Below are positions 1,228 to 59,750 of a DNA stretch of 64,000 bases, in pieces. Origin of the DNA: a virus (Duplodnaviria; Caudoviricetes). A model generated the notes under the pieces. It was not told where the DNA came from. It saw only the letters and a program-made list of their open reading frames with translations, and searched no databases. Made by a program: the position numbers and the translations under genes. The stretch lies in IMG/VR virus record IMGVR_UViG_3300025631_000005, positions 9,996 through 73,995 of that record. One strand, 5' to 3'. How positions within the stretch are numbered: position 1 is the first letter of the stretch; each line of letters begins with the position of its first letter.

Positions 1228-1434
1228 ATGTCTATGTGTAATGAGTTTATAGCAGAAACATTGTTGAGCGTGCCGATCGATAGCGGCGTCATCGAAAAGA
1301 TCCAAAGTGATGTAATCGAGATGTCAAAGCAGGTGAGCGACAATCTCAGCGTCGATGCGGTCGCTGAGAGTATCAGTTGGAAATGGAGAGGAGTTTTGAA
1401 TCCAGATTCAAAAAACGGAGGCGCTGAAGAATGA
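1228..1434 (+). CDS. small hypothetical protein
   Basis: AAGGAG just upstream; stop overlaps next ATG (ATGA); 3' end contains a palindrome copy. Confidence 0.55.
   Translation: MSMCNEFIAETLLSVPIDSGVIEKIQSDVIEMSKQVSDNLSVDAVAESISWKWRGVLNPDSKNGGAEE
1394..1413. repeat. 20-bp palindrome copy 1 (one mismatch, TCCAGA core)
   Basis: TTTTGAATCCAGATTCAAAA inside 3' end of 1228-1434. Confidence 0.85.
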
Positions 1435-1799
1435 AAAGAGAAAACCCGAAGCGGCACAAGGTCGTTCTTTTCAAGGACGAAGATGGAGAGATCAGCGGTG
1501 CGGCTTCTGACCTGCCGAGGGGCTCGATGGTCATTGTCGTCCCCTGCTACTGCGGTACGAAGCTCGACTGGCTGCATTACCAGCAGTTCCGTTTCCATCA
1601 TCCTATCGTGATTGTGAAGCGCAGCAGTCCGGATTCGGACTACGCGAAGTTCCTTGTGCTGCGCGACGACGGCTATGACAGTCACGTTGCGACCATACAA
1701 GGCCAGTTCTCATCGGAAGAACTTGCGCAGTACCTTCGAGATCTCGGTTTCACCAACGTCAAGATCGACGAAGACCGGGAAGTCGATTACGACGATTGA
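1431..1799 (+). CDS. hypothetical protein, weak paralog of 1845-2231
   Basis: C-terminal LRDLGFTNVKI vs LSELGFQNVEV. Confidence 0.65.
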   Translation: MKRENPKRHKVVLFKDEDGEISGAASDLPRGSMVIVVPCYCGTKLDWLHYQQFRFHHPIVIVKRSSPDSDYAKFLVLRDDGYDSHVATIQGQFSSEELAQYLRDLGFTNVKIDEDREVDYDD

Positions 1800-1844
1800 T
1801 GGAGTCGACCACGAAAAAGAGGACTACGAAAATAAAGGAGGACT

Positions 1845-2231
1845 ATGAGTTCGACAGCGAGGACGGAGCCGCGTCGTGAACAACACGACGACGGCCCGGC
1901 GGCTAAAAAGCGTATTGTGATCTTCGATTCCGGCAAATACGGCGTTTCAGTCGTGGCATTGGATAATCCGGAGGAGTTCGAAATCATACTGCTGACACAG
2001 CGTGGAGACGCTGTCACGAGGCTGAGCGCGACCGCGATTCGCTTCGACGCCCGGCTTCAAGTGGTAGAGATGCCTGAAAACGGCGGTAATTCCGTCTGTA
2101 TCAGACTCATTGAGCCTCCAGACGGAGAGATTCTGCACGCGGTCGGGAAAGTGACGGCTGGGGCTGTGGTCGACGAGCTTTCCGAGCTCGGCTTTCAGAA
2201 CGTCGAAGTCGTCGCTTTACGTAAGATCTGA
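1845..2231 (+). CDS. hypothetical protein, weak paralog of 1431-1799
   Basis: AAGGAG RBS; shared LGFxNV motif. Confidence 0.65.
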   Translation: MSSTARTEPRREQHDDGPAAKKRIVIFDSGKYGVSVVALDNPEEFEIILLTQRGDAVTRLSATAIRFDARLQVVEMPENGGNSVCIRLIEPPDGEILHAVGKVTAGAVVDELSELGFQNVEVVALRKI

Positions 2232-2274
2232 AGTCAAAAACTTCTGTTGATCGTTGAGTAGAAAGGAGATGCAA

Positions 2275-3543
2275 ATGCTCGGCTCATCGGTTCTGGGTAT
2301 GCTTTTGAAAGCGAAGTCGGACGATGTTGATGCCGTTGTGGAAAGAATCCGAAAGGATGTAAAGTCGCTGAAGACGCTGGCCGACGGCAGCCTTACAGAC
2401 GAAGAGCAAGCGCAGATCCGGCGATGGTTCTTCGCATTCGGCGACAAAGCTGACCCTACCAGTGTTTACGATTTTGTGTACCGGCTCAAAACGCAGCCGA
2501 GGTCGGTAAAATCGTTCGTCTCGCGGTGTCTTCGCAGCGAGTGCAGCGTCATCCGGGCGTTCGCCTGCCGTGCGGCGGCGCGTTTGTTGAGTACGGGGAG
2601 ATGTCCGTTCTCCAAGGCGGCTGTGGTGTCGGCGGCGAAATCGGTGCTGAAGAAGCTGCCTGGGGTTTATATAGAGACGTCGATGCTGAATTTGCTCTAC
2701 AGGCTTGCGCCTGACGAATATCGTACCGCCGCCAGGGCGCTTCTACGGCGTGCTGTGGCCGAAGCACATGCGAACGCGCCGTTGGTCCTAATCGAGTTCG
2801 GCAAGTTCTACGATCTTTTGCCGTATGCCGTCGATCTGATACTCAAGAACCTGGACCGGAGGTCTCCGGGTTACAGAGAGTCCCTTTTGTGCAATATCAT
2901 ATCTTTGGTCGTTCGCGCAGGCTGCGAGCTTCCACGCTCGACGGCTCGCAAGCTCGTCGTGAAGACGCTGGACTGCATGAAGGCGAATGTGTTCGCGTGC
3001 CGGACAGTTGTGCTGTACCTGTGGTCGCTCCTTGACGTTTGGCGCAAAAACCGCAATCTGATCAAGTCGATCAGCGAGGACGTTTTGCGGTATCCGTCCA
3101 ACGCGGTCAGGCCCGCCAATAATATCCTTCTCGCCATACTCAAAGCCAGATTGAAGCACGACGTCTATGGCAACTGCTCGATCAGCCTTCCCGAATTGAT
3201 CAGCAGCTGTCTCAATAACGAGTATTGCAAAGACAGTGATGTACGGCTCTGGACGTTGACCGCGCTTATTAGATTGGCCGCGCATGTCGTAGACATCCGC
3301 CAATGCGCCAAGCTGATCAGCCAGCTGCCGAATAGAGGGGCGGCGGAAAGCTATCAGTTCGTCTATCTGGACCTGCCGGCCGAGCGGTTTGTGGACCTGT
3401 TGAACCTTCTCCGTCCCAAAAGACGCGCCATTGTCCTGCGGTCTGTCGCCGGATTCTGGTCTACAGTCGACAAGGGTTTGGTGCACAAGCTGACGCCTGA
3501 CGTGGACCCGATGGAGGTGGAACAGGTTGTTCGGTTCATCTAA
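2275..3543 (+). CDS. alpha-helical (ARM/HEAT-like) hypothetical protein, paralog 1 of 3
   Basis: AAGGAG 2263-2268 favours ATG 2275; shares KSxVSRCLRS, GxCPFSKA, LPxxTARKLV, LLDxWRKN, LRYP with the next two genes. Confidence 0.75.
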   Translation: MLGSSVLGMLLKAKSDDVDAVVERIRKDVKSLKTLADGSLTDEEQAQIRRWFFAFGDKADPTSVYDFVYRLKTQPRSVKSFVSRCLRSECSVIRAFACRAAARLLSTGRCPFSKAAVVSAAKSVLKKLPGVYIETSMLNLLYRLAPDEYRTAARALLRRAVAEAHANAPLVLIEFGKFYDLLPYAVDLILKNLDRRSPGYRESLLCNIISLVVRAGCELPRSTARKLVVKTLDCMKANVFACRTVVLYLWSLLDVWRKNRNLIKSISEDVLRYPSNAVRPANNILLAILKARLKHDVYGNCSISLPELISSCLNNEYCKDSDVRLWTLTALIRLAAHVVDIRQCAKLISQLPNRGAAESYQFVYLDLPAERFVDLLNLLRPKRRAIVLRSVAGFWSTVDKGLVHKLTPDVDPMEVEQVVRFI

Positions 3544-3587
3544 CCGAGCGGCTTGAATACGAACGGCTGCCTGGTTATCGTCGATCT

Positions 3588-3617
3588 GGCGGGCGCTGCC
3601 GTCAAGCGGCGCCCGCC
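3588..3617 (+). terminator. GC-rich intergenic hairpin (possible terminator)
   Basis: 12-bp stem GGCGGGCGCTGC/GCGGCGCCCGCC, 6-nt loop, weak U tract. Confidence 0.4.
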
Positions 3618-3682
3618 CGACTTGTTGTGTGGCTGTTTTGACTGCTGTGAAATCTCGAAGTTTGATGGAAAGGAGAACGAGA

Positions 3683-4981
3683 GTGCCTAGTTTGCTCGGT
3701 ATAGATATGGCATGGGCGACGCGGCGGGTAGGCGCTTATATTTTCGAAAGGATCTCCAAAGATGCGCCGGCGATGCTGGAAATAGGCAAAAAGTGGCTCA
3801 AAGGGGGCAAGTTGTCCGATTATCAGCGCAGATTGCGTAAGTTTACCGACCAGGAGTATGGGGCGTCTGACAGCGTCGGAGCGCTCCTGTACTGGATCAA
3901 TAGGGATCCGAAGTCGGCGAAGTCGCTTGTCTCGCGGTGTCTCCGAAGCAAGCGTATGATTGTCAGAGCGTTCGGGTGCTACGCCGCGGAGCGGCTGTTG
4001 AAAACGGGAAAATGCCCGTTCTCTAAGGCTACTGTGGTGTCGGCGGCGAGGTCTGTGCTGCGGGAAGTTCGGAGCTATCCTGAGATCCAGCTGGCGGCTA
4101 AGATGCTGCAGCTGATTCAGAACCTTGAGCCGAAGGTCTACTGTGCGGCGGCCGAGTCATTTATACGCCGTATTACAGCCGACTGCGGTTTAACGTACGT
4201 GACCGATGCTGTTGAGCACTGCAAGCTCTACGATTTCGTCCCGCTCGCCACCGAGCTGATGCTCAAACAGCTCAATCGGGACAGACTGGTGCATAAAGCA
4301 GCCTGTTTACACCGTGTTTTGTTTTTCCTCGTGCGCGGGGAATACGAGCTGCCGGGAGCGACAGCCCGCAAACTCGTTACAACGACCCTGGATTGCATGG
4401 AGCTCGACGATTTCATGTTCCATGACGTTATGATGCTTCTGTGGCCGCTCCTCGATATTTGGCGTAAAAACCCTGAGCTGTCTGAGACGGTCAACAAAAC
4501 CATTCTGCGCTACCCCTACGACAACGTCGCCTCTGTCCATAAACCCCTTCTCGCCGCGCTCAAGGTGCGGGCGGAGTACGACATGACCGGCGCCTATACC
4601 CGTCTTGCTGAATTGGTTGGGTATTGTTGCGTCGACGGCGATTACCACGGTCTGGTATCTCCATCATTGCGGGCCGTTCTTCTCAAAGCGGCTGCGTATG
4701 TCGGAGATGTCGATCAATGCGCTATCACGCTTGCCGATCGAATGAGCGACGATGAAGTGTTGGACCAAGGATATATCGCCTACCTGGATATGACGATGGA
4801 GCAGTTCAAGCGGCTGCTGGATCGGCTCCCCGTCAGCAGACGTGAACTCGTCTTACAGTCTGTTTCGGAGTTCTTAAACTTGCTCGATTACGAGTTGATG
4901 TTCAAGGAGGTCAGAAAAGGCTTCGCAATTACGTTTGACAATGTCGATCAGGCTCTCGCTTCAGCCGAGCGGCCGGTCTAA
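3683..4981 (+). CDS. alpha-helical hypothetical protein, paralog 2 of 3
   Basis: AAGGAG before in-frame GTG 3683 (ORF track starts at 3629); same family motifs. Confidence 0.75.
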   Translation: MPSLLGIDMAWATRRVGAYIFERISKDAPAMLEIGKKWLKGGKLSDYQRRLRKFTDQEYGASDSVGALLYWINRDPKSAKSLVSRCLRSKRMIVRAFGCYAAERLLKTGKCPFSKATVVSAARSVLREVRSYPEIQLAAKMLQLIQNLEPKVYCAAAESFIRRITADCGLTYVTDAVEHCKLYDFVPLATELMLKQLNRDRLVHKAACLHRVLFFLVRGEYELPGATARKLVTTTLDCMELDDFMFHDVMMLLWPLLDIWRKNPELSETVNKTILRYPYDNVASVHKPLLAALKVRAEYDMTGAYTRLAELVGYCCVDGDYHGLVSPSLRAVLLKAAAYVGDVDQCAITLADRMSDDEVLDQGYIAYLDMTMEQFKRLLDRLPVSRRELVLQSVSEFLNLLDYELMFKEVRKGFAITFDNVDQALASAERPV

Positions 4982-5084
4982 GAAGAACCGACAGACGAGG
5001 CGATGTCGGTTGGTCGCGGATTCGGTTTACTGTTTGTTATGTGACTGTTTCAGTCGGTATGAAGTCTAAAGAAAGGAGATACCG

Positions 5085-6368
5085 ATGAACGGTTTGTATG
5101 ACATGGATATGCAGCGGGTGGCGGAATTTGCGAGCAGCGATGTCTTCGAAAGCGCTCACGGAGACGCGTCGACGATATGGGAGATGGTCAAGGACTGCTC
5201 TGAGGCTAGGGATCGACTCGACAGTAATCTCGGGCTGTCCTTGTTCGCCGACTGGATGTATGCGGCGTCTAATGACGCCTATGCGTTCCTGTACTGGATC
5301 AATAGGGACCCGGAGTTGGCGAAATCGCTCGTTTCGCACTGTCTTCGAAGCAAGAAGCTGCGTGTCAGACTGGATGCGTGCCTTGCCGCCGAGCGGTTGT
5401 TGAAGAAGGGAAAGTGCCCGTTCTCCAAGGCCGTTGTGGCGTCGGCGGCGAAGTCTGTGCTGCGGGAGGTCTCTGATCACTATCTGGCGGCTTCACTGTT
5501 GCGGCTGATCCAGAGACTTTCGCCGGAGGACTACTGTGCGACGGTCAAGTCGTTCCTGCGTCGTGCTGTAAACACCCGATACATAGGGTGTGTGATCGAC
5601 GTTATCGAGAGAGGCAGGCTCTATGCTTTTGTGCCGTTTGTCGTTGAGCTCGTTCTCAAGAAGTTGCATGAGAAGCGCCCGGCGGACAGCCTGTATGTCC
5701 TGCGTCATATCATGTCTCTCATTATGCGTGCGGAGTGCGACCTACCGGCGACGACGGCCAGAAAGCTCGTTGTGAGATTTCTGGATTGTCTGACCGACGA
5801 GTATGCGTTCTCGGAAGTCATGTTGCACCTGTGGCCCCTTCTTGACATCTGGCGTAAAAACCCTGATCTCACCAAGGCGGTCGGAAAGGCCATCCTGCGC
5901 TATCCCTATGGTAATGTCACCCCTGTCAATAAGCCCCTTCTCGCCGCGCTTAAAGTGCGGGCGAAGTACGACGCCACCGGCGATTCGGCCTCCCTTGCGA
6001 CGTTGGCCGACTACTGTTTCGGCGATGCCGACGGCGGCGACGGTCGCAGTCAAGCCCTGCAGCGCTCGTTGCGGGTCTTGTTCCTCAGAACGGCCGCATA
6101 CGTCGGGGCTGTCGGCCAATGCGCCGACACGCTTATCAACCGAATGAGCGACAGCAATGTGCTGGACTATGGCTATATCGTCTATCTGAGCATGGAGATC
6201 AACGGATTTATGCAGCTGTTGGACCGGCTCGATCGCGCTCCTGAGAAACGCAAGCTCCTCTTACGGTCCGTTGCGCGGTTCTTAGACGTGCTCGGCTATG
6301 AGGCGATAGCCAGAACAGCCATGACAAACAGCTACAATCGGTTGTTCTCGACAGTTGACGAAGATTAG
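5085..6368 (+). CDS. alpha-helical hypothetical protein, paralog 3 of 3
   Basis: AAGGAG RBS; long near-identical blocks with 3683-4981 (LWPLLDIWRKNP, KPLLAALKVRA). Confidence 0.75.
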   Translation: MNGLYDMDMQRVAEFASSDVFESAHGDASTIWEMVKDCSEARDRLDSNLGLSLFADWMYAASNDAYAFLYWINRDPELAKSLVSHCLRSKKLRVRLDACLAAERLLKKGKCPFSKAVVASAAKSVLREVSDHYLAASLLRLIQRLSPEDYCATVKSFLRRAVNTRYIGCVIDVIERGRLYAFVPFVVELVLKKLHEKRPADSLYVLRHIMSLIMRAECDLPATTARKLVVRFLDCLTDEYAFSEVMLHLWPLLDIWRKNPDLTKAVGKAILRYPYGNVTPVNKPLLAALKVRAKYDATGDSASLATLADYCFGDADGGDGRSQALQRSLRVLFLRTAAYVGAVGQCADTLINRMSDSNVLDYGYIVYLSMEINGFMQLLDRLDRAPEKRKLLLRSVARFLDVLGYEAIARTAMTNSYNRLFSTVDED

Positions 6369-6430: not shown

Positions 6431-6466
6431 CAGGTGGGCGCCGCCGAGCGGCGCCCACCTGTTTTT
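6431..6466 (+). terminator. intrinsic terminator abutting palindrome copy
   Basis: 13-bp perfect stem CAGGTGGGCGCCG/CGGCGCCCACCTG followed by TTTTT. Confidence 0.7.
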
Positions 6467-6482
6467 GAATCCGGATTCAAAA
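6463..6482. repeat. 20-bp palindrome copy 2 (extends to 28 bp, 6459-6486)
   Basis: Exact; intergenic. Confidence 0.95.
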
Positions 6483-6565: not shown

Positions 6566-8110
6566 ATGATAAAACAAGCCCATATCGATCGTATCGACTC
6601 GCTGCTGGTCCTATCCTCAGACGGCGAGCGACCGATTGATGACAAGGAGCTCCTTTATGAGCTTACGCGAAAACTACAGTTTACTAAGGTCAATCTTAAG
6701 TTCGCTGGTAAGTTTTCCAGGGAATTCAAAACCTGCGCCCTGTACGCCTTGGACGACCAGAACAGGATCGTCTGTCAGGTCGGCTGGTTGGACGCAATCT
6801 GCCGCCTACTAAATAAGCACGGCTATGCTGTCGATTTGTGCGATAAGTCTTCGCCTCTACCTCGACCGGACTGCTACGAGGAAGACTGGGAAGGGCTGGA
6901 GCGGAATTTCCAGTTTCGACCTGCACAAAAAGAGTGCATTGTTGCTATTTCTGAGCGCATCAGCAAGCGATTAGGCGGCGTCGTCGAAGCTCCGACGGCT
7001 TTTGGTAAGACCAAAGTGATCTCCATGATCTGCACTCTATACCCAAAAGCCAAGATCGACGTCGTCACAAGCGGTCTTGAGCTTATCCACGACCTACGGC
7101 GACATCTGCTGACGGTTACTCCCGAAGTGGGGGTGATCGGTGGCGGCGGTAAAGACGAACGTCGGATTACGGTTGTGTCCGACAAAAGCATGGCTTACAG
7201 TAACTTCGAGGCGGACATCGTCCTGGTGGACGAGGTCCATAAAATGATGACCGATAGGTCCGCCGGGCTGTTGAGCCGCTACAAGCACGCCTGCATGTTC
7301 GGCTTTACGGCGACCAAAGAAACCCGGATCGACAACGCCCACCGTCGAATGGAAGGCATTTTCGGGCCGACCATCTTCAAGATCGACTGGAAAAAGGCTG
7401 TCGAGCTTGGTCTGATCGTACCAGTTCAGGTTATATGGATACCAGTCAATCTGGGGACTCTCGTTTCCCGGTATTACGAGTCTGTGATTCGCAGAAAGCG
7501 GTTCGGGTATTGGAGAAACTTGGAAAGAAACCAGGCTATCGCGAAAGTAGCCAGAGCTTTCTACCAGGAGGGTTTTCAGACCCTGATTCTTGTCGAAACC
7601 GTCGAGCATCTTCTTTACCTGCACGAGCTGCTGCCGGAATTCGCCATTTGCTACGGCAGCCTGGAGCTGAGCGGCAGAAAGCTGGAGATGTTCCGGCGCC
7701 GGGGTCTTCTCAAGGACGTCCATCCGCTCACTCAAAGGGATCGGATGCAGCTCAAAGCGAGGTTTGAACAGCAGGATCTGATGGGCGCTATCGCCACTCC
7801 GATCTGGACTCATGGGGTCAGCTTCGACGCCTTGCAGGTCCTGATCCGAGCCGACGGCGGCGACAGCATGACGAACAACTATCAGTGGCCCGGTCGGGTC
7901 ACAAGAATAGACCCGAAAACAGGAAAATCGTACGGTATTGTGGTGGATTTTGAAGACTTGTTCGATCCGTGGGCTTTGGCCAGAAGTCGGAGAAGGAGAC
8001 AAGCCTATGCCAAGGCGGCCTGGAATCAAAAAACTATTGGCAGACAAGCCGATCAAGCAGAAGACGACGAAAGCCGGTCCTACAGCGAAAATAGAACCTC
8101 CGGCGGATGA
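6566..8110 (+). CDS. superfamily 2 DExH helicase (UvsW-like)
   Basis: APTAFGKT, LVDEVH, FGFTAT, QWPGRVTR motifs. Confidence 0.9.
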   Translation: MIKQAHIDRIDSLLVLSSDGERPIDDKELLYELTRKLQFTKVNLKFAGKFSREFKTCALYALDDQNRIVCQVGWLDAICRLLNKHGYAVDLCDKSSPLPRPDCYEEDWEGLERNFQFRPAQKECIVAISERISKRLGGVVEAPTAFGKTKVISMICTLYPKAKIDVVTSGLELIHDLRRHLLTVTPEVGVIGGGGKDERRITVVSDKSMAYSNFEADIVLVDEVHKMMTDRSAGLLSRYKHACMFGFTATKETRIDNAHRRMEGIFGPTIFKIDWKKAVELGLIVPVQVIWIPVNLGTLVSRYYESVIRRKRFGYWRNLERNQAIAKVARAFYQEGFQTLILVETVEHLLYLHELLPEFAICYGSLELSGRKLEMFRRRGLLKDVHPLTQRDRMQLKARFEQQDLMGAIATPIWTHGVSFDALQVLIRADGGDSMTNNYQWPGRVTRIDPKTGKSYGIVVDFEDLFDPWALARSRRRRQAYAKAAWNQKTIGRQADQAEDDESRSYSENRTSGG

Positions 8111-8747
8111 ACAGTTGGCCGAGCTGGCTGCGCGTGTCCGCGCTGCGTATTTCAGAAATCGGAACTACGTTCAATGTCAGGCGAGATCCGATTACGGGAA
8201 AGGATATACTTATCCATGGGACCATAAGTCGTCCCACGGTAAGACGATATGGGAGAAAATCGCCGAGGGGCTTGTTCGACAGAACGTCACAGACCCGGAG
8301 CGATTCGTCCATGCACAGTTTGCCTACTCAAGTAGACCGGAAGGCTTATTGCCTCCGTATCTTCTCAGCGAAGACAGTCAGGAGAACTACCGAAAGTACT
8401 GTCTGTCGGCTGATACAGCGCTCCGCCGTTCGGCGGCGTCCCAGATAGCCAAGTTCAAGTGTCTTCAGGTCGAGTGCAGCCGCGTCCATCAGTCTAAAGA
8501 GGGCAGTTGCCGCGCCGTCCTTATGACCAGCACAAACGGATTGAGTCCGCTTTTCCGGTGGCTCGTGGCTGCCAGCGAGGACATGTTGGACGTGTGCAAT
8601 CACTGGGAAGAGGCTGCGGTGGTCCAGTATATGTTGGACCCGGAAGGGTATAAGAACGTTTGGTCCACGTTGTTTTCGCCGGTCTTCAGCAAATTCCTCA
8701 CGCATGTCGGACCTTACTTGATCGGCTATACGGAAGACTCAAAATAA
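8007..8747 (+). CDS. hypothetical protein in replication module
   Basis: AAGGAG 7993-7998 before in-frame ATG 8007; lies between two helicases. Confidence 0.65.
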   Translation: MPRRPGIKKLLADKPIKQKTTKAGPTAKIEPPADEQLAELAARVRAAYFRNRNYVQCQARSDYGKGYTYPWDHKSSHGKTIWEKIAEGLVRQNVTDPERFVHAQFAYSSRPEGLLPPYLLSEDSQENYRKYCLSADTALRRSAASQIAKFKCLQVECSRVHQSKEGSCRAVLMTSTNGLSPLFRWLVAASEDMLDVCNHWEEAAVVQYMLDPEGYKNVWSTLFSPVFSKFLTHVGPYLIGYTEDSK

Positions 8748-8764
8748 TCATAGAGGGTTGACTT

Positions 8765-11705: not shown

Positions 11706-11725
11706 TTTTGAATCCGGATTCAAAA
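11706..11725. repeat. 20-bp palindrome copy 3
   Basis: Exact; upstream of polymerase. Confidence 0.95.
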
Positions 11726-19730: not shown

Positions 19731-20195
19731 ATGCTTCAACTTCGCCCTGCCGGTACAGACACCCTTTTCTACAGCCCCGACAGAGATCTGGCCATCGTCG
19801 GAATAGGGTTGTTAAGAGCTTCCGCTATTTTGATGGATTCCCAGAGGGAACCGTGGTTTCAAGCCTTCCTGAATCAGAACGGCGTCAGCGACCAGATGCT
19901 GGCTGACGGGATGCAGAAGGTAGCCGTCGCTTCCTCCTACTTTAAGGACAGACCGGGACAGGCGCTGAAAAAAGCCGGGTTCTACTCCCTGCCATGGGCT
20001 GTCCAGGCCGCTATTTTTATGAAAATGGGCCAGGTGCTCTACAGCGCCGTCCATACCAGCCGTAGATCCAGCTTCAGCGCGGATGCGGATAGATTGCCTG
20101 TCGGCTCTGACCCGATCGAGGAGCAGGCCAAGAGGTTAATGGAGCAAGCCAAGATCGAGATTTTGAATCCGGATTCAAAAAGTTCGACTACGTGA
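19731..20195 (+). CDS. hypothetical protein
   Basis: GGAGG RBS; palindrome copy near 3' end. Confidence 0.6.
   Translation: MLQLRPAGTDTLFYSPDRDLAIVGIGLLRASAILMDSQREPWFQAFLNQNGVSDQMLADGMQKVAVASSYFKDRPGQALKKAGFYSLPWAVQAAIFMKMGQVLYSAVHTSRRSSFSADADRLPVGSDPIEEQAKRLMEQAKIEILNPDSKSSTT
20161..20180. repeat. 20-bp palindrome copy 4
   Basis: Exact; in 3' end of 19731-20195 (ILNPDSK). Confidence 0.95.
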
Positions 20196-27553: not shown

Positions 27554-27948
27554 CAAAGTTTGAATCCGGATTCAAAAATCGGTTCGGTCATAAAGGATCC
27601 GTAATACGCATCCCTGGTATGCCATCTCTGGCAGAACAGTACGGCATCAAGATTCCGTCCAATTTCGGTAAGGAGTTCGTCAAGGTTCTTGAGAACCTAA
27701 AATCCGAGCAGATTAGCCAGTCTCAACAGTTTGCACAACAGGACGGAATACAGACGATCGACCCGTCGCAGCTAAAACCGGTATTTTTAGGCGACTTTGA
27801 TGACAAACCTGCTATCGACCAAACCACGCAAAACCAGCAAGACGAGCAGAACAGGCAAGAATCCGCGCAAGAACCTCAAAAAGGCGTCGGGTTCCTGGGA
27901 GAGCTCGCAAAGCTTGCGGCTAAGTCTAAACCGGCTGATTCTCGGTAG
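27550..27948 (+). CDS. hypothetical Gln-rich protein
   Basis: ATGA coupling with portal; begins with a palindrome copy (FESGFK). Confidence 0.5.
   Translation: MTKFESGFKNRFGHKGSVIRIPGMPSLAEQYGIKIPSNFGKEFVKVLENLKSEQISQSQQFAQQDGIQTIDPSQLKPVFLGDFDDKPAIDQTTQNQQDEQNRQESAQEPQKGVGFLGELAKLAAKSKPADSR
27558..27577. repeat. 20-bp palindrome copy 5 (G at position 1)
   Basis: GTTTGAATCCGGATTCAAAA just after portal stop. Confidence 0.9.
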
Positions 27949-33867: not shown

Positions 33868-36117
33868 ATGCCAAGCAACGTCCGCAATATAGAGCCAGGC
33901 GAGGAGGCGGTCGGTATCCCGTCGCGGAAGTACTACGGCTCCTTGGGATTGCGGCCGGGGGAGCTTCTGGACCTTATTGTCCAGGAGCATAAAGCCCATA
34001 GAGCCGGCAAACACTACGATATCCGCATAGGCGACCCGACAAGGGGGTTGTTCAGCTGGGCGTCGAGAAAACCTTGGCCGCAACCCGGCGAGAAACGGCT
34101 GGCTATCCAGCAGCCTGTCCATGCGTATTCGTACAAAGACTTCGAAGGGGTCATAGGCCAAGGTTACGGAAAGGGTGTGGTGCGGAAGGAAATGGAGAGG
34201 CGGATCGTCATTACAGCCGCCTCTCCGAATATGATCCATTTCACTACGGCGGATGAGCGTTTTCCGGAGCGGTTCGTTCTGATTCGTCAAAAAGGCGAAG
34301 GGAAAAACGCCAGATGGCTGCTCCTCAACGTGACCCAGTCCGACGGACCGGAATACGATAAACCGAAGATCAAAGAAGTTCCGGCAAAGGACGTCGATGA
34401 GTTCATTCGGCAGATGAAAGACGGCGACAGCCTCCAAGAGAAGATCGACGGTGCGCATGGACTAATTAAACTGCTGAATAACCATATCGAGGTCATCAGT
34501 ATCCGCAAATCAAAGAGCGGACGGTCGATCGTTCATACGGAACGCATCTTCCAAGGCGTCAGACCGAAAGTGGAGGATAAGGCGATCCAAGATACGGTGA
34601 TGGCCGGCGAGATCTGGGGTGAACGTGGGGGGAAGGCTATACCCCCACAGGAGTTAGGTGGGATACTCAACGCCGCCATCGAGAAAGCGATCCAGAAGCA
34701 GAAAGAACTGGGCGCCCAGTTGAAGGTCTCCCTCTTCGACCTTTACCGGCTGGCCGGCAAAGATGTCCGCGAGATGCCGTATCAGGAGAGGATCAAACTC
34801 ATCAAGGAGCAGGTGCTGCCGAAGCTGCCGGACCGTGTTTTCGATATTGTCGAGCAGGCCACAGACAGCGACAGCGCCAGAAAGCTCTGGAAGCAGATCG
34901 CCAGCGGCAAGCACAAGCGCACCCAAGAAGGCGTCATTCTGCGTCCGGCGGAGGGCCAGCCAGCCAAGGCCAAACTGTTCAGCGAACATGATGTTGTCAT
35001 CAGAAGGGTGTTTCCAGGGGAGGGGAAATACCGCGAAAGAGGGGTCGGCGGCTTCGAATACTCCTATGATGCGTCCGGACCGATTGTCGGACGGGTCGGC
35101 ACAGGGCTCTCAGATGAGCTTCGGGAGGATATGTTTAAGAACCCGCAGGCGTATATTGGTAGATGGGCGAGAGTTACCGCCCAGGGAAAATTCCCGTCTG
35201 GAGCGTTAAGGGCCCCGTCGCTCCTCTCCCTTCACGAAGATAAACCAGAGGTAGAGGTCCAAGAGCCCGAGATTTTGAATCCGGATTCAAAAACAATGAA
35301 AACAGCTCACGTCAATGTGCCTGATCGGCTGCGATGGGAAGACCTACCCACGGCCATCGAGCAGGTCTATCACCGTTACAAACCGAGGGTGATCCAGGAA
35401 ATCACCGCCAATCCGTTCGCAAACAGTTGGCAGGTTGAAACCCCATTAGGGGCTATCAAGGTGGCCAACTCGCACTGGTCGCCATTCTCCTTCGTGTACG
35501 ACGCCCTGGTAGAGCCAACAAAGCCGTTCGGCGGCCCGACGCCGCTGCTGCTTTCGCTTGTCGGCGGCGCCTACGGCGCTGGTCTGGGCGGCCTGGGAGG
35601 GCTAATTTACGGCAGTCTCGCAAACACACTGGGCGGGCGTATGGTGGAGACGCCGACAGCGGTTAGACGCCTAGCTATTCTGGGGGGGCTCCTTGGGGCT
35701 CTACCGGCCCTGACAGTAGGGCTGTCCAGGGCGCTGCACGGACGCGGGTTGAAAGGGTTTACAGAAAAATGGCCAGAGGAAAGCCAGAGCGGTATGGCCA
35801 AGGAAAGCCAGGCGGCTGTCCCGGTTTACGTTGTCAACGAACCCCATTGGAGGGATACCGTATTTGAAGATCGGTTCCTGACGGCGTCCGAAAAAGCGCT
35901 CGCTGCTTCCCCTGTCTACGCGTCGTCACTGGCTGCCGGGAGAAGCAATGTAACTCCTGGAGAAATAGGGTATACTACACTCAAAGCGGGCCTTGGTTCG
36001 CTTCTCGGATACATGATCGGCAACATCGCCGGAAGCGTTCTATCGCTGTCGCCCGATATGCGGGAAAAAGTCAGAAATACGGGTATGCTCGCCGCTATGT
36101 TGCGGAGCGTCTTCTAG
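33868..36117 (+). CDS. LigD-type 3'-phosphoesterase + ATP-dependent DNA ligase fused to a C-terminal Gly-rich hydrophobic domain
   Basis: QEHKAHRAGKHYDIR..VHAYSY; EKIDG, AGEIW, LFDLY, EGVILR, OB-fold GRVGTGLS; unrelated domain after a linker. Confidence 0.85.
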   Translation: MPSNVRNIEPGEEAVGIPSRKYYGSLGLRPGELLDLIVQEHKAHRAGKHYDIRIGDPTRGLFSWASRKPWPQPGEKRLAIQQPVHAYSYKDFEGVIGQGYGKGVVRKEMERRIVITAASPNMIHFTTADERFPERFVLIRQKGEGKNARWLLLNVTQSDGPEYDKPKIKEVPAKDVDEFIRQMKDGDSLQEKIDGAHGLIKLLNNHIEVISIRKSKSGRSIVHTERIFQGVRPKVEDKAIQDTVMAGEIWGERGGKAIPPQELGGILNAAIEKAIQKQKELGAQLKVSLFDLYRLAGKDVREMPYQERIKLIKEQVLPKLPDRVFDIVEQATDSDSARKLWKQIASGKHKRTQEGVILRPAEGQPAKAKLFSEHDVVIRRVFPGEGKYRERGVGGFEYSYDASGPIVGRVGTGLSDELREDMFKNPQAYIGRWARVTAQGKFPSGALRAPSLLSLHEDKPEVEVQEPEILNPDSKTMKTAHVNVPDRLRWEDLPTAIEQVYHRYKPRVIQEITANPFANSWQVETPLGAIKVANSHWSPFSFVYDALVEPTKPFGGPTPLLLSLVGGAYGAGLGGLGGLIYGSLANTLGGRMVETPTAVRRLAILGGLLGALPALTVGLSRALHGRGLKGFTEKWPEESQSGMAKESQAAVPVYVVNEPHWRDTVFEDRFLTASEKALAASPVYASSLAAGRSNVTPGEIGYTTLKAGLGSLLGYMIGNIAGSVLSLSPDMREKVRNTGMLAAMLRSVF
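35273..35292. repeat. 20-bp palindrome copy 6
   Basis: Exact; in the interdomain linker of the ligase fusion. Confidence 0.95.
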
Positions 36118-50372: not shown

Positions 50373-50392
50373 GTTTGAATCCGGATTCAAAA
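50373..50392. repeat. 20-bp palindrome copy 7 (G at position 1)
   Basis: Intergenic. Confidence 0.9.
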
Positions 50393-51410: not shown

Positions 51411-51419
51411 GATCACCAT

Positions 51420-51518
51420 ACCAGGCGCCGGCGCGTCTAGGTGTCCAAGTGGTTCTGAGGCGTGCGCTTCGGCTTGGGCCGTCTTCCCACACCAACTGGA
51501 TGTCTGCCGGCGCCTGGT
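51420..51518. ncRNA. structured element, second family (copy S2)
   Basis: Perfect 13-bp IR ACCAGGCGCCGGC/GCCGGCGCCTGGT enclosing CCAAG..GAGGC-GTGC-GCTTC..CTTGG. Confidence 0.6.
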
Positions 51519-51648
51519 TTGTTTATGTCGAAATGAGGGGTTAGAATGGTCAGGGTATATGTTATCGAAAGTCGTCTGACGTACAAGGTTTAAGGGTACG
51601 GGCGGAGGTCGCCGCCCGTGTTCGTTTTGTCTTTAAGGAGTCCGTCGA

Positions 51649-51906
51649 ATGAAGAGACAAATGGCCGAACGGCTGAAAGATTATATCCCCATTGTGGCGA
51701 AAATGCATCGTATAAGGGCCGACGTGAAAACGATCGAGAGCGATAAAGGCGACTGCGGCGTAAAGATCGCCGTGCGTGTCGGCAAGCACAGCGCGGCTAA
51801 AGAGATATTCGATGAGGCAGCGCTTGACGTCGATCAGACGAGTCGGCTGCTGTTTGATCTCGTTGCAACTGCGGCGGCCGCTATCGAGAAGGACGACCAG
51901 CTATGA
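51649..51906 (+). CDS. small hypothetical protein, family of three
   Basis: AAGGAG RBS; GVKIAV..HSAAKEIFD shared with next two ORFs. Confidence 0.65.
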   Translation: MKRQMAERLKDYIPIVAKMHRIRADVKTIESDKGDCGVKIAVRVGKHSAAKEIFDEAALDVDQTSRLLFDLVATAAAAIEKDDQL

Positions 51907-52349
51907 GAGAAAAGACCGCGGATGACTTGGCCTTTGTCGTCAAACACGGATGTTTTCTGGCGAACGACAAACCTGAAGCGGAGGTAGTAAAGAAGGTCGA
52001 TGCTCCAAGTGAGACAGACGCATACGGCATAAGAATCACTGTCCGGGCTGATGGGTGCAGTGCCTCTGAAGAGTTCTATGAGGAGGTCGGCCCTTCTCTC
52101 GATGAGACCATCGAAACCCTGGAAAAATGGGTAAGTAAGGTCTGTGACAAGGCTTATCGTATGGCGCACAAACACCCGGACAACGAAGGCCAGAAAAGCA
52201 ACGAAGAGACGTCCGACGCGGAGGACGCCTCCGCCTGTACTGAACGTCATAAGCCGCCGGAAGACCACGGGAAGCGTACTCCAGACCCCGCTGTCTATAT
52301 CTACGTGAAAGCGAAGATAAAGTGGAAAAAAGAGTCGCAGAAGAATTAG
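51903..52349 (+). CDS. hypothetical protein, same family
   Basis: YGIRITV..CSASEEFYE. Confidence 0.65.
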   Translation: MREKTADDLAFVVKHGCFLANDKPEAEVVKKVDAPSETDAYGIRITVRADGCSASEEFYEEVGPSLDETIETLEKWVSKVCDKAYRMAHKHPDNEGQKSNEETSDAEDASACTERHKPPEDHGKRTPDPAVYIYVKAKIKWKKESQKN

Positions 52350-52741
52350 CCTGTTTCATTCCCTGCGCGGCCAAGTTCTACTATATGAATGCCGAAGCAG
52401 AGGTGATAAGAAGGAGCGCAAGAGCTGTCAGCAATTCGCGGTGTCAGCTGCTTGCGTTGCTGAAACTGGTCAGGGAGAGATTCGGCGATCCAGACTTGAA
52501 ATCGGCTGACCGCAGCAGGTTGCTGAGTATGCTGCCTGAAGTGTACGGCGTAAAAATCACTGTCTACGACACGGAGCACGGCAGCGAGCACAGCGCGTCC
52601 ACAGAGGTCTTCGACGATATCGACCTTTCAGATGAATCCAGCCTCGAAAAGGTCGACTGTTGGCTGAGAAGGACGTACTATAAAGCACTTAAAAAAGCAA
52701 ACCAGAAAAGCGACCAGAGACCCAGTCGGTCTCAGCCTTAG
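52322..52741 (+). CDS. hypothetical protein, same family
   Basis: YGVKITV..HSASTEVFD. Confidence 0.6.
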   Translation: MEKRVAEELACFIPCAAKFYYMNAEAEVIRRSARAVSNSRCQLLALLKLVRERFGDPDLKSADRSRLLSMLPEVYGVKITVYDTEHGSEHSASTEVFDDIDLSDESSLEKVDCWLRRTYYKALKKANQKSDQRPSRSQP

Positions 52742-52752
52742 TTCATCCGGCA

Positions 52753-52772
52753 TTTTGAATCCGGATTCAAAA
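52753..52772. repeat. 20-bp palindrome copy 8
   Basis: Exact; intergenic. Confidence 0.95.
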
Positions 52773-52798
52773 CCCGACAACAAGGAGACGAACGCAGC

Positions 52799-53302
52799 AT
52801 GAGCCAGATATTCATTCTTGAGGGCTTTTTGAAGTATAAAAAGCAAGAGGACTACGAAAACGCCAAGAAGACGCTGATCGACGGCGGTTGGCCGGTACGG
52901 GTCGTGGATGCCCCTGCAGAGGGGGGTAAAGACGACGGCGACTATATCCTGGTCAATGACACCAATAGGGAGATCCGCATACCCTATTCTGGTTATAGAA
53001 ACCTCGGCCGGCTGCTCAGCCCGACCCTTTCCAGTATGATGGGCTGCAAGCCGCTTCAACACGGGTCCGAAGGATTCGTATTCTTTGCCAGTTTTGATGG
53101 TTGCACAGATGGCGGTATCATCGTGGACGGCGAAATCGTGGAAGAGGTCGATCTGGTCGACTTAGCTACAACCGAAGGAAAGGGTCCGCCGGAGATAAAG
53201 GATGACAACTACGACGACTACTTTGATTGGGAAAATGAAACACTGGAGTGGTACAAGCAGAGGGTTTATGACCGATATGTGCGTGACGAGTACCTTCGAT
53301 AG
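52799..53302 (+). CDS. acidic hypothetical protein, family with 50420-50908
   Basis: AAGGAG RBS; shared motifs. Confidence 0.7.
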   Translation: MSQIFILEGFLKYKKQEDYENAKKTLIDGGWPVRVVDAPAEGGKDDGDYILVNDTNREIRIPYSGYRNLGRLLSPTLSSMMGCKPLQHGSEGFVFFASFDGCTDGGIIVDGEIVEEVDLVDLATTEGKGPPEIKDDNYDDYFDWENETLEWYKQRVYDRYVRDEYLR

Positions 53303-54162: not shown

Positions 54163-54205
54163 GTCGGATAACCCTCCCCTTCTTAAGAAGACCAGCCATG
54201 CCGAG

Positions 54206-54243
54206 GCGCAGCCGGGATCGCCCAGTCCCGGCTGCGTTTTTTT
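54206..54243 (+). terminator. intrinsic terminator
   Basis: 11-bp stem CGCAGCCGGGA/TCCCGGCTGCG + T7. Confidence 0.8.
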
Positions 54244-54258: not shown

Positions 54259-54278
54259 TTTTGAATCCGGATTCAAAA
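54259..54278. repeat. 20-bp palindrome copy 9
   Basis: Exact; intergenic after terminator. Confidence 0.95.
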
Positions 54279-55288: not shown

Positions 55289-55552
55289 ATGATCAAAGCG
55301 GCAATCTATCTGGGGGCTGTTATCCCCGCTATATTGGGGTACTGGCTTTGGGGCCAAGTAGGCATCTACGCCTTTATGTTCGGCGGTCGTATTTTCGCCG
55401 CCTTTTTGAGCCTGTTGCCGGGCAGCGTCAGCTCGGAGCTGGAGGCTCTGGGTTTTCTTGTTTGCTTCTTGTTCTACTATGCGTTTCTGGGTGTCTGCGT
55501 TTTGGTGCCGGTGTTGATATGGTTTGCAGTCTGGGACAATTTCGGGTTCTAG
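55289..55552 (+). CDS. small membrane protein
   Basis: Almost wholly hydrophobic. Confidence 0.55.
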   Translation: MIKAAIYLGAVIPAILGYWLWGQVGIYAFMFGGRIFAAFLSLLPGSVSSELEALGFLVCFLFYYAFLGVCVLVPVLIWFAVWDNFGF

Positions 55553-55571: not shown

Positions 55572-55591
55572 TTTTGAATCCGGATTCAAAA
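55572..55591. repeat. 20-bp palindrome copy 10
   Basis: Exact; intergenic. Confidence 0.95.
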
Positions 55592-56897: not shown

Positions 56898-57045
56898 GTC
56901 AAGTCGACTGTTTCGGCAAAAGATGGCCGTATTTCTGGTTGGAGGTGCTGAGTGATCCATGAGGAATGAAGAATGCGGAAGCCTGCCAGAAAATATCGGT
57001 TGTGAAGTCTCTTGTGAATGTTGGAATCAAGCCGCTTAGCAAATC

Positions 57046-58923
57046 ATGGCTAATATTAGCATTTATAACTGCACATTTTATAACGCAGGTACTTATGGTA
57101 TTACTGCCACGGGGAACGAACCATTTATTTATTGCTACAATACAGCAATTTGTGATAGTAGTGTATGTTTCGATGCTACCAATCCCACCATTGATGGTGA
57201 CTATAATGCTTCCTCAGATTCTACTGCTCCAGGCAGTCATTCGCTTCATAGTATCAACGCTAGTAACCAATTTCTTGATCTGACCTCTGGTCAATTTGAC
57301 TGCCATCTTAAAGAAACTAGTGATCTAGTTGATGCTGGAACCGACCTATCTTGGACAGGCTTTGACGACGACATCGACGGAGACACCCGCCCGTCCGGCT
57401 CATGGGATATAGGCGCGGACGAGTATACAGAGACTGGAGTAGAAGTAACAGCAAATTGTTCTCCAGGATATGCGTCTTGGACTGCAACTACCGCGTCAGC
57501 GACCAGCGTAGATGAGGCCCAGCCCGGTTATTATGTAGGTCATCTACAGTGGACCGCATCGCAAGCGGCTGCAAGTTATCAGACCCAACCGGAGATCAGT
57601 GTCCTTTCTGCATCAGCCCAATGGACGGCTAATCTAGCTATAGCAAGTTTTAGCGGGCAGTTTCAGGCCAATGCTACTTCCGCTTTTACTCAATGGACTG
57701 CTATTTCGGCTTCTACAGCAGTCCAAAGCCAGTCGGTAGCCAATGCTACTTCCGCTTTTACTCAATGGACTGCTATTTCGGCTTCTACAGCAGTCCAAAG
57801 CCAGTCGGTAGCCAATGCTGGTTCCGCTGCTGCTCAATGGGCTGCTAGCTTAGCTGCGGCAAACTCCAGCGGACAGTTCCAAACCGATGCCAATTCAGCT
57901 GCTGCTCAATGGACGGCTAATTTGGCTTCTATAGCGGTCCAAAGCCAGTCGGTAGCCAATGCTACTTCCGCTTTTACTCAATGGACTGCTATTTCGGCTT
58001 CTATAGCGGTCCAAAGCCAGGCGGTAGCCGATGCTGGTTCCGCTGCTGCTCAATGGGCTGCTATTTCGGCTTCTATAGCGGTCCAAAGCCAGGCGGTAGC
58101 CGATGCTGGTTCCGCTGCTGCTCAATGGGCTGCTAGCTTAGCTGCAACGAGCTCCAGCGGACAGTTCCAAACCGATGCCAATTCAGCGGCTGCCCAATGG
58201 ACCGCCAATTCGGCTACAGTAGATTCTGGCGGGCAATTTCAGACTGACGCCAGTCCAGCTTCAGCCCAATGGACGGCTGGCTCGGCCTCTGCGACAGCTC
58301 AGAGCCAGCTGACAGCCGGTGCAAGCTCCGCTTCCGCTCAATGGGTTGCCGGTATCGTCGAGACATCGGTAGAAAGCCAAACCACAGCGGAGTGCTCGAC
58401 AGCTTCAGCCCAATGGACTGCAAGCCAGTCAGCTGTATCCTCCGGCGTCCAACTGCAAGCAGAGATCCACTCCGCTTCCAGCCAATGGACGGCGGCTCAA
58501 GCGTCGGTCGGCTACCAGCTCCAGGTGCAGACTGCTGCAGAGCCGGCCGCCGCCCAATGGGTCGCAAGTTCTGCCGACGCTACTGGCGTTATTCATTCTC
58601 AGGCCGCCGCTGGTTCAGCTTCCGCCCGATGGACGGTCGATGATGCGGAGCCTGTTTATGTTGTTTCTGCAGTCATTACCGGGCTTTCGGCTGCGTCCCA
58701 ATGGCTGAATCCGGCGGCCAGTGCGAGCTACAATAGTTATCAACAGGCGGAGGCCGATGCCGCCGATTGCCTGTGGCGGGCGTCCGACGGCGTCGCCGAA
58801 TGGGCCAGTCTGCACCAGGCGGAAACTTCGGCTTCAGCCTGCTCTTGGACCACCGAGTCGGCCGATACAAGCTATCTGGCCGGCAGGGTCCCTTGGCATC
58901 TGGTACACAACGTAGCTCTTTAG
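57046..58923 (+). CDS. tail fibre/spike-like protein with beta-helix remnant and 24-aa QW repeats
   Basis: IYNCTFYN, DIDGDTRPSGSWDIGADE, then ~20 S-A-x-x-Q-W-T-A units. Confidence 0.65.
   Translation: MANISIYNCTFYNAGTYGITATGNEPFIYCYNTAICDSSVCFDATNPTIDGDYNASSDSTAPGSHSLHSINASNQFLDLTSGQFDCHLKETSDLVDAGTDLSWTGFDDDIDGDTRPSGSWDIGADEYTETGVEVTANCSPGYASWTATTASATSVDEAQPGYYVGHLQWTASQAAASYQTQPEISVLSASAQWTANLAIASFSGQFQANATSAFTQWTAISASTAVQSQSVANATSAFTQWTAISASTAVQSQSVANAGSAAAQWAASLAAANSSGQFQTDANSAAAQWTANLASIAVQSQSVANATSAFTQWTAISASIAVQSQAVADAGSAAAQWAAISASIAVQSQAVADAGSAAAQWAASLAATSSSGQFQTDANSAAAQWTANSATVDSGGQFQTDASPASAQWTAGSASATAQSQLTAGASSASAQWVAGIVETSVESQTTAECSTASAQWTASQSAVSSGVQLQAEIHSASSQWTAAQASVGYQLQVQTAAEPAAAQWVASSADATGVIHSQAAAGSASARWTVDDAEPVYVVSAVITGLSAASQWLNPAASASYNSYQQAEADAADCLWRASDGVAEWASLHQAETSASACSWTTESADTSYLAGRVPWHLVHNVAL
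57667..58243 (+). repeat. 72-bp tandem repeat (24 aa) with near-identical copies
   Basis: Unit starts at 57667, 57739, 57811; 144-bp block at 57811 recurs at 58099. Confidence 0.9.
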
Positions 58924-58932
58924 GAAAACGGT

Positions 58933-59730
58933 ATGGCAATCTACGGACAACCCATTACGGTTCAATACGTCGCTTGGAACACGCTGTCCAACTCCGGGCA
59001 GACCGGAGACGCCGACAACCATACCCTTCGCTGGGTTAAAGATGGGGTAGCGGCTGCACCTACGAACTCCCCGACTGAACTGGACCCGACCAACTGCGCC
59101 GGGGTCTATACCGTTTCTCTCACCGAAGAGGAGACTTCCTGTTGGGTGGGCACTCTTTGCGGTAGGTCCAGCACCCCCCATGTGGTTATTATGCCGGTGA
59201 CTTTCGCATTCGAGCGGTTGTCCGCATGGGAACTGGCGGCGATCGAGGCGGGCGTGTGGGACGCAGCGATTGCGGACCATCTGCAATCGGGCTCTGCCGG
59301 GAAGACGCTCTACGACAGCTTACAGATGGTCTTCGGTATAAGCGGCGGAGTAGTTCAGGTCATTTCACCCGTCTCCATCGACGGCAGGACGATCGAGCTC
59401 ATCCAAGGCGATGACTTCACGGACGGCACCAAGAGACCCCTCATTTGGAGGAGTTACAACTGGCCCGATCTCACCGGTGCGACCGTCACCTTCACAATGA
59501 AGGAGGTCGAAGGCGATGGTGTCCTGGACGTTTCCGGTGAAGTAGTGCAATCGGGGGACCAGTTGCAGATCGTAAAGGTCGAGCTCACCAACAATGACAC
59601 CAGCGACCTTGTTACTGGCGTCTACACCTATGACTATGACTTAAGAGCTGTTCTGGCCTCAGCGGAAGTATCGACTCTGGTCATGGGTCGAGTCGGTGTG
59701 AAGGCCCCGGCCTCCCAAATGGGGGGTTGA
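58933..59730 (+). CDS. putative tail/baseplate-associated protein
   Basis: C-terminal LTGATVTFTM..YDYDLRAV..TLVMGRV, BppU-like pattern. Confidence 0.5.
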   Translation: MAIYGQPITVQYVAWNTLSNSGQTGDADNHTLRWVKDGVAAAPTNSPTELDPTNCAGVYTVSLTEEETSCWVGTLCGRSSTPHVVIMPVTFAFERLSAWELAAIEAGVWDAAIADHLQSGSAGKTLYDSLQMVFGISGGVVQVISPVSIDGRTIELIQGDDFTDGTKRPLIWRSYNWPDLTGATVTFTMKEVEGDGVLDVSGEVVQSGDQLQIVKVELTNNDTSDLVTGVYTYDYDLRAVLASAEVSTLVMGRVGVKAPASQMGG

Positions 59731-59750
59731 TTTTGAATCCGGATTCAAAA
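59731..59750. repeat. 20-bp palindrome copy 11
   Basis: Exact; begins on the base after the stop of 58933-59730, at the strand switch. Confidence 0.95.

Follow-up and report, generated by a model that had tools for sequence, protein, structure and literature searches.

A 20 bp perfect palindrome, TTTTGAATCCGGATTCAAAA, recurs along a 64,000 bp stretch of phage DNA, bases 9996–73995 of the 73,995 bp IMG/VR contig IMGVR_UViG_3300025631_000005 (here named G000; CheckV completeness 51%). We conclude that the palindrome is probably a protein-docking site on double-stranded DNA. Opinion is evenly balanced on the narrower proposal that its reader is a dimeric protein encoded by the phage itself, and we tentatively put forward the predicted product of the open reading frame (ORF) at 17355–18539 as a possible reader. 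Positions are those of the 64,000 bp stretch, called the window below, unless given as contig positions.

A pattern search recovered exactly the 11 positions listed in a preliminary description of the window, eight with exact copies and three with copies carrying a single mismatch (Table 1), and the word was found in none of 100 dinucleotide-preserving shuffles of the window. The full contig holds 13 copies, with the two outside the window at contig positions 212 and 5644, giving a density of one per 5.7 kb. The symmetry is perfect and gapless, and the mismatch spectrum across the contig is all-or-none: 13 copies at 0–1 mismatch, none at 2–4 mismatches and background from 5 mismatches upwards. 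No isolated half-sites were found in the contig. The sequences flanking the copies share nothing, as had been described, and in most copies the dyad stops sharply at 20 bp. The palindrome is also the only enriched intergenic word in the contig. The other repeated 12-mers were rejected, as they belong to a 72 bp tandem repeat within the gene at 57046–58923. This repeat (57650–58100) has no fewer than five units, gives a 24-residue repeat in the protein and explains every other high-count 12-mer in the contig.

The stem of the palindrome is AT-rich. An RNA hairpin of the 20-mer has a free energy of only −3.4 kcal/mol (z −0.77), and in native context the minimum-free-energy structure is a different one. 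The stable GC-rich stem-loop and U tract of an intrinsic terminator are absent, as the palindrome is followed by an A run and variable sequence. The two GANTC sites around TCCGGA that had been pointed out previously are present, but GANTC as such is not enriched (268 observed, approximately 284 expected from base composition), and a GANTC/CcrM link to the palindrome was dropped.

Judged from simple ORF calls and family matches, each copy is placed at the border of a gene or domain, most of them in intergenic DNA. The placement given in the preliminary description, in intergenic gaps, at gene ends or a gene start and in an interdomain linker, therefore holds. As non-coding DNA makes up only approximately 9.5% of the contig, such placement is far from random. 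Five copies (contig position 5644 and window positions 27558, 50373, 52753 and 59731) start 0–11 nt past a stop codon, and several end 2–27 nt ahead of the next start codon with a ribosome-binding site between; overall, the next start lies anywhere between 2 and 183 nt away. In translation, the copy at 20161 reads ...ILNPDSK.... The copy at 35273 corresponds to residues 469–475 of a LigD-like ORF (33868–36117, plus strand) in which phosphoesterase, ligase adenylation and OB domains, the last ending near residue 453, precede the palindrome, and 273 residues of unknown family follow it. An in-frame ATG lies 3 nt past this copy, at 35296, so the ORF is either a fusion or two genes without a stop codon between them. 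A strong GC hairpin (−33.7 kcal/mol for the left flank) ends 3 nt ahead of the copy at 6463. At 59731 the plus-strand gene block ends, and after the palindrome comes a hairpin with A/T runs at which the converging minus-strand genes end. The portal gene at 25592–27553, whose stop codon precedes the copy at 27558, was identified by its match to the portal of Salmonella phage Arash.

Table 1. Copies of the 20 bp palindrome in the window and the ORF of the candidate reader protein
Feature	Position	Strand	Context
Palindrome, one mismatch (central G to A, G11A)	1394..1413		Intergenic; ATG 1431 17 nt downstream, GGAGG between
Palindrome, exact	6463..6482		83 nt ahead of helicase gene at 6566
Palindrome, exact	11706..11725		Intergenic; 60 nt ahead of DNA polymerase gene 11786-14791
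Palindrome, exact	20161..20180		Within last 12 codons of ORF 19731-20195; GTG 20197 16 nt downstream
Palindrome, one mismatch (T1G)	27558..27577		4 nt past portal gene stop
Palindrome, exact	35273..35292		In frame at domain/gene border of LigD-like ligase ORF
Palindrome, one mismatch (T1G)	50373..50392		3 nt past stop of 49164-50369; ATG 50420 27 nt downstream
Palindrome, exact	52753..52772		11 nt past stop 52741; ATG 52799 26 nt downstream
Palindrome, exact	54259..54278		18 nt past terminator-like hairpin 54203-54240; 86 nt ahead of ATG 54365
Palindrome, exact	55572..55591		19 nt past stop of 55289-55552; 84 nt ahead of ATG 55676
Palindrome, exact	59731..59750		Convergent junction; starts on base after stop of 58933-59730
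Candidate reader, 394 aa	17355..18539	+	Residues ~192-303 model as ParB/Noc/KorB-type helix-turn-helix DNA-binding domain

The phage is a member of a large, uncultured clade whose phages, of approximately 150–210 kb, encode their own RNA polymerase. A terminase profile returned more than 430 relatives from IMG/VR, on contigs of up to 226 kb. No close relatives at the DNA level were found in public phage records, and the nearest cultured phages, Arash and the Vibrio phages D69, D148 and D181, share only 22–30% identity. Arash is known to package RNA polymerase beta, beta′ and a sigma factor (PMC10585845). Searches with PHROGs and Pfam identified helicases, a primase, a DNA polymerase, a UvsX-like recombinase, a large terminase and a portal in the contig, together with SbcCD-like proteins, a ligase, a retron-type reverse transcriptase and a TnpB gene.

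When the exact palindrome was sought elsewhere, no other IMG/VR contig contained it, and its 16-base core returned only single chance-level matches there. In 185,579 species genomes it was found five times, each a single chance-level match in an unrelated taxon. It was, however, present on 12 metagenome contigs from several samples, with one to three copies on each. Eight of these contigs fall into two groups (L031, L033, L038, L040 and L042; L035, L037 and L039), within which identity is mostly approximately 99%, the lowest pairs being 97.5% and 94%. They align with G000 only at short TnpB-related segments and at the palindrome itself. As L031, L035, L037, L038 and L042 match the 130–147 kb region of a 208 kb relative, G004, that encodes RNA polymerase beta-like proteins, the eight grouped contigs are most simply read as the missing half of the same phage type, which would then carry the sites at equal density. 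No tie to the phage was found for the remaining four (L032, L034, L036 and L041). The preliminary description had allowed that the motif might prove to be an assembly or adapter artefact or a common host repeat. As the word recurs, between differing flanks, in separate assemblies of several samples, an artefact is ruled out, and together with the scan of species genomes these contigs argue against a host repeat.

Several relatives carry dyad words of their own. In G001 and G002 (terminase 54% identical), GTTAATATTAAC, extended to 16–20 bp, occurs four to five times in 15–16 kb, always at gene borders. The 153.7 kb contig G005 holds 30 copies of WAGATATCTW (consensus CAAAGATATCTTTG), compared with none for the reversed control, and the density of this word in G006, G007 and G008 equals that in G005. 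Of the 30 copies in G005, 20 lie within ORFs, spread over each of the three reading frames and the full range of relative positions. G004 has approximately 18 copies of TAGAAACTGGMWTYTA, a quasi-dyad of the form TAGAA-N6-TTCTA that is identical to the core TTGAA-N6-TTCAA of the G000 palindrome at 11 of 16 positions. The terminal TAG of the G004 word is often the stop codon of the upstream gene, its asymmetric centre faces either way relative to transcription (11 vs 5), and as RNA it folds at −0.1 to −1.3 kcal/mol. In the relative L005, the portal orthologue likewise precedes a palindrome, but this is a different one, specific to L005. A near-palindrome in G000, GTTTGAAGCTGGCTTCAAAC, which lies within the DNA polymerase gene at 12366–12385 and is five mismatches from the 20-mer, has a centre that resembles the G004 word (GAAACTGGCTTC).

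Arash (OQ632216.1, loci L133–L140) has no dyad array of this kind. It contains five pairs of inverted quasi-palindromic AAACGTTGTAAC sequences 144 bp apart in repeated cassettes, and approximately 30 asymmetric promoter-like GGTATAAGTA(aagtgtaa) words in 181 kb. The latter lie 12–25 nt ahead of ribosome-binding sites, almost without exception on the strand of the genes, a pattern suggestive of phage promoters. Recurring words in three further loci were rejected as analogues, being the start codons of paralogous small genes in L121, a tandem repeat in L069 and small cassettes in L114.

Compared with random junctions and random positions, the site arrays are more even than chance. The coefficient of variation of spacing was 0.535 in G004 (P 0.003), 0.689 in G005 (P 0.019), 0.509 in G006 (P 0.023) and 0.645 in G000 (P 0.07–0.09). 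The left 45 kb of G000 is very even (0.21, P 0.00025), though this is a post-hoc subset. Pooled inter-site distances have a mode of 3–6 kb. G005 and G006 are collinear, with 65–88% DNA identity, and the flanks of their sites are 67–92% identical. Seven G005 sites fall in aligned blocks, and six of them are unaltered at the orthologous position in G006, whereas by our own estimate an 8-base core would be expected to survive approximately once in ten at approximately 75% identity. Four sites found only in G006 and one found only in G005 differ from their counterparts by 2–3 substitutions, with a gap of at most one base in the aligned site. As the shared sites are intact and the others have changed only by substitution, we conclude that the sites evolve in place under constraint and not by insertion.

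No classical helix-turn-helix (HTH), HU or ParB_N protein was detected in Pfam, PHROGs and NCBIfam scans of approximately 70 ORFs. A search with HTH_ParB gave one weak match, to a gene close to the recombinase in G004 (contig 8059–9036, minus strand), and the gene in the equivalent place in G000 is 17355–18539, part of which (17781–18539) had been singled out as a candidate in the preliminary description. Both proteins also match DUF1016_N weakly. A word-index search for homologues of the candidate came back empty, phmmer against PDB returned nothing and ESM Atlas gave no usable lead. An exhaustive HMMER search collected 93 homologues of residues ~150–390. When the profile of these homologues was compared with PDB, the six best matches were ParB/Spo0J chains (E 0.0017–0.019). 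A profile built without the G004 protein matched that protein with an hhalign probability of 98.2% (E 4.8e-14, 246 columns, 15% identity). Thus, the two are diverged homologues in similar gene neighbourhoods.

The AlphaFold model of the candidate (pLDDT 93.1) places the HTH domain between long helices that are predicted to dimerise. Its top Foldseek matches were the DNA-binding domains of Noc, ParB, Spo0J and SopB, with weak E-values and probabilities of ~1.0, and the model superposed on the Noc DNA-binding domain with a TM-score of 0.70. With VIA-align, the top 12 matches were all ParB/Noc/Spo0J chains (Z 8.2–10.4, 92–100 residues, rmsd 2.5–3.7), and the structure of KorB with its operator (PDB 1r71) scored Z 6.6. 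A homodimer was predicted with a score of 0.74, compared with 0.00 for the best control; among proteins of solved structure, 20 of 30 homodimers and 1 of 23 monomers attained this score, though here it may be owed in part to likeness to solved ParB-family dimers. Three runs gave contact agreement of at least 86% and pLDDT of at least 80. The predicted dimer interface runs through the long helices at the N and C termini, with the ParB-like domain largely exposed. The earlier suggestion is thus consistent with what is modelled here, a dimer with a ParB/Noc/KorB-type DNA-binding domain. The ParB_N CTPase domain (PF02195) was not matched in G000–G008 at E ≤0.1, although controls were positive, and domain scans assigned no family to the N-terminal 150 residues of the candidate. 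The candidate's family is absent from Arash. In G005, which has an array, no homologue was detected, but this contig breaks off within the replication module, the expected location of the gene, so the missing homologue is uninformative and not contrary. A conserved 236 aa protein (contig 1865–2575) was also considered as a reader, but its model was poor (pLDDT 50.5).

Among the interpretations offered in the preliminary description, a site for a dimeric phage protein, of the parS, matS or operator type, is the best supported, judging from sequence comparisons: the dyad is sharp, perfect and all-or-none, its RNA fold is weak, relatives have other dyads, spacing is even and sites are conserved in place in a related pair. 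A packaging or recombination site gained no specific support. We propose that a sequence-specific homodimer encoded by the phage would recognise the 20 bp palindrome on double-stranded DNA, with each half of the dimer reading one TTTTGAATCC arm, and that one docking site would be kept roughly every 5 kb along the genome. Confinement to gene and domain borders would follow from the length of the word and the TGA it contains in one frame on either strand. The most likely reader would be the 17355–18539 protein, a long-helix dimer with a ParB/Noc/KorB-type HTH that lacks the CTPase clamp domain of ParB. The array might have a genome-wide purpose, for example global transcription control, insulation at operon borders, or the organisation or marking of the phage DNA, on the pattern of KorB-OB, Noc-NBS or MatP-matS.

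In a broader and rather doubtful form of this proposal, the clade would use a CTPase-less coiled-coil protein of the ParB fold and a lineage-specific palindrome lattice, with sites every 4–6 kb, for genome-wide marking or organising. Site and reader would co-evolve, the lineage pairs being represented by TTGAA-N6-TTCAA in G000 and TAGAA-N6-TTCTA in G004. If real, such a lattice could distinguish or arrange phage DNA in infection, or punctuate transcription by the phage polymerase, through a mechanism undescribed for ParB relatives.

Promoter, RNA-hairpin, mobile-element and host-factor readings each account for fewer observations than docking does. That the palindrome is a signal for the phage RNA polymerase holoenzyme, serving as a promoter or, with the aid of a protein, as a terminator or pause site at operon borders, seems unlikely to us. 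The clade encodes RNA polymerase beta and beta′, and a sigma factor is present in G004 and Arash (PMC10585845). The palindrome is moreover the sole enriched intergenic word in the contig, its density resembles that of the GGTATAAGTA words in Arash and several copies adjoin terminator-like hairpins, which lie before or after them. However, the Arash words are asymmetric and oriented with the genes, at a short distance from the ribosome-binding site, whereas here the word is a perfect palindrome at widely varying distances from the next start, and the copy at the convergent junction has no gene to serve. The asymmetric centre of the G004 word faces either way, two thirds of the G005 sites are within genes and no conserved −35/−10 partner element was found in the flanks of the palindrome. 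Thus, the asymmetry, co-orientation and fixed short distance to the start that are expected of phage-specific promoters are all lacking from the palindrome. An RNA hairpin in polycistronic mRNA, acting as a processing site, a stabiliser or a translational operator ahead of ribosome-binding sites, would suit at least four junctions (1394, 50373 and 52753, and 5669 on L035) at which a copy separates a stop codon from the following ribosome-binding site, but is highly improbable given that the hairpin is weak and does not form in the native-context fold. Furthermore, the G004 word barely folds and is present in both orientations on the same coding strand, G005 sites occur within ORFs in all frames and one copy lies past the last gene of its strand.

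The palindrome might instead be selfish or driven by recombination, either a REP/MITE-like element or a linker at module boundaries that is propagated by copy-paste or favours exchange between co-infecting relatives. The copies are identical with sharp edges, they resemble 20 bp additions to short junctions, they are in frame in two ORFs and an IS605-family TnpB gene lies at 62940–63854; in Cluster O phages, recombination between such repeats has been documented (PMC4351075). We nevertheless give this reading little credence. There are no target-site duplications, the ends of the insertion sequence are unlike the palindrome, no match to the word with up to four mismatches was found elsewhere in the contig and even spacing is not expected of a selfish insert. 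In G005 and G006 the sites arise and decay by point substitution, with no element-sized indels. REP and REPIN elements with a RAYT are imperfect GC-rich hairpins that bear a conserved 5′ tetranucleotide, are present in many copies in the host chromosome and have a cognate Y1 (RAYT) transposase. Here, no Y1_Tnp match was found in the contig, the stem is AT-rich and the word is absent from the 185,579 species genomes save for the five single matches, so the suggestion of a REP-like mobile palindrome in the preliminary description gains no support. It is also very unlikely that the sites are read by a host protein, be it nucleoid-associated or involved in division or regulation, that the phage exploits or titrates. 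The proposed phage reader is still a candidate, the word is stylistically like sites of the Noc, SlmA and ParB type, and relatives with other hosts have other words. Against this, the word is enriched in none of the species genomes, though the host may be unsampled, and the phage itself appears to encode a fitting dimeric DNA-binding protein with a diverged syntenic homologue in G004.

Several observations weigh against a docking array read by the candidate protein. In G004, strong hairpins abut 9 of 18 sites compared with 8% of other junctions (P 5e-4), which, with the abutment of copies to stop codons and ribosome-binding sites, could point to punctuation of transcription units; in G000, the association of palindrome and hairpin is not significant. 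The profile matches of the candidate to ParB are marginal (E 0.0017–0.02). As the modelled domain is helical and its Z-scores of 8–10 are below 13, a common helical arrangement could give such values, and the structural match is suggestive, not decisive. The co-occurrence of reader and array covers three genomes only. In most of the other relatives examined, available as pieces of approximately 20 kb, no perfect palindrome recurs. Of two comparable junctions, only that following the portal gene has a palindrome in G000 as well as in L005, no more than chance allows. Finally, the dyad words are replaced between lineages and need not be homologous to one another.

Other features of the region were also recorded. 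The copy at contig position 5644 begins on the first base past the stop codon of a Rad50-like gene, and an SbcD/Mre11-like and SbcC/Rad50-like gene pair occupies contig 2583–5643 (locus L132), outside the window. The densest part of the array has four copies between 50373 and 55591. Two small paralogous gene families, one with three members of 162–171 aa sharing an EDYENAK motif and one with three members of 85–148 aa, occupy 50420–53302. The TnpB gene (62940–63854, minus strand) encodes OrfB_IS605 and Cas12f1-like TNB domains and is not accompanied by a Y1 transposase. A 123 bp stretch of its 3′ part is 100% identical on L033 and L040, and approximately 96 bp of its 3′ end is present three times on L032; the L032 copies may be omega-RNA-derived repeats. 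A reverse-transcriptase-like gene with PHROG polymerase/RT matches lies at 39876–40844 (plus strand), and an 81 aa protein encoded at 31912–32157 (plus strand) has, by eye, a cold-shock-domain-like sequence (VVKFVNVEKGYGFITP...). In G004, at 44.3–47.3 kb (L008 8162–11371), a homologue of the terminase large subunit contains an insert of approximately 1.9 kb in one long ORF, which may be an intein or homing element.

Multiple copies of a short site in short intergenic gaps are also a feature of Cluster A mycobacteriophages, in which one phage protein stops transcription at stoperators (PMC9283540). However, stoperators are asymmetric 13-mers that are oriented with transcription and bound by the monomeric immunity repressor of temperate phages. 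The G000 word is a perfect palindrome, and PHROGs and Pfam found neither a repressor nor an integrase in the 74 kb, half of the genome being missing.

Mechanistically, the nearest systems would be KorB-OB, Noc-NBS and ParB-parS. The sites of Noc (NBS), ParB (parS) and MatP (matS) are palindromes of 13–16 bp that are spread over large DNA regions, in genic and intergenic positions, and read by dimers. The G000 palindrome, with 13 dispersed copies in 74 kb, fits the pattern of several scattered palindromes of approximately 13–20 bp that is expected of ParB, KorB and Noc systems, and the DNA-binding domains of Noc and ParB are the best structural matches of the candidate. A ParB-type HTH is thus predicted on the same replicon, at the level of fold only. 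However, Noc, ParB and MatP are cellular proteins, and their roles in division-site control and segregation have no obvious counterpart in a giant phage of lytic type. KorB, a member of the ParB superfamily from the IncP plasmid RK2, reads dispersed palindromic OB operators with the core TTTAGCGGCTAAA (PMC11790492). It is a dimer with a ParB-type HTH that acts genome-wide, as the candidate reader may do here, though the model aligns better with ParB and Noc than with KorB. The phage also differs from the plasmid in having no known KorA-like partner, and KorB clamps and slides by means of an N-terminal CTP-binding domain, a domain that Noc and ParB share. As this defining CTPase domain was searched for and not found, palindrome and candidate may work like a ParB/KorB system but are not classed as one.

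The nearest described case is the 17 bp dyad repeat TGTTCGG-N3-CCGAACA of Cluster O mycobacteriophages, for which a dimeric binding protein was inferred and the function left open (Cresawn et al. 2015, PMC4351075). There too, one invariant palindrome is present in tens of copies across a phage genome, of approximately 70 kb, with many copies in short intergenic gaps, an orientation that is not tied to transcription and no occurrence in the host. The G000 palindrome has the same invariant arms, genome-wide distribution, absence from host genomes and lack of a fixed relation to promoters, a likeness of kind and not of homology. The Cluster O phages are, however, siphoviruses of Mycobacterium, a third of their copies are clearly within genes and the readers proposed for them are three generic DNA-binding proteins, whereas here the 20-mer is gapless and confined to borders, and the candidate reader has a specific, ParB-like predicted fold. 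Genome-wide phage palindromes have been reported earlier, with their function unexplained, and what is new here is a further phage clade and a new type of candidate reader. With a short exact site, a concrete candidate and a diverged reader–site pair in a relative, the question is directly testable. If the pairing is true, a docking system without a clamp and spanning the whole phage genome would be added to the known uses of the ParB DNA-binding fold, and the way in which giant phages that encode their transcription machinery organise or control 150–200 kb of DNA would become easier to approach.

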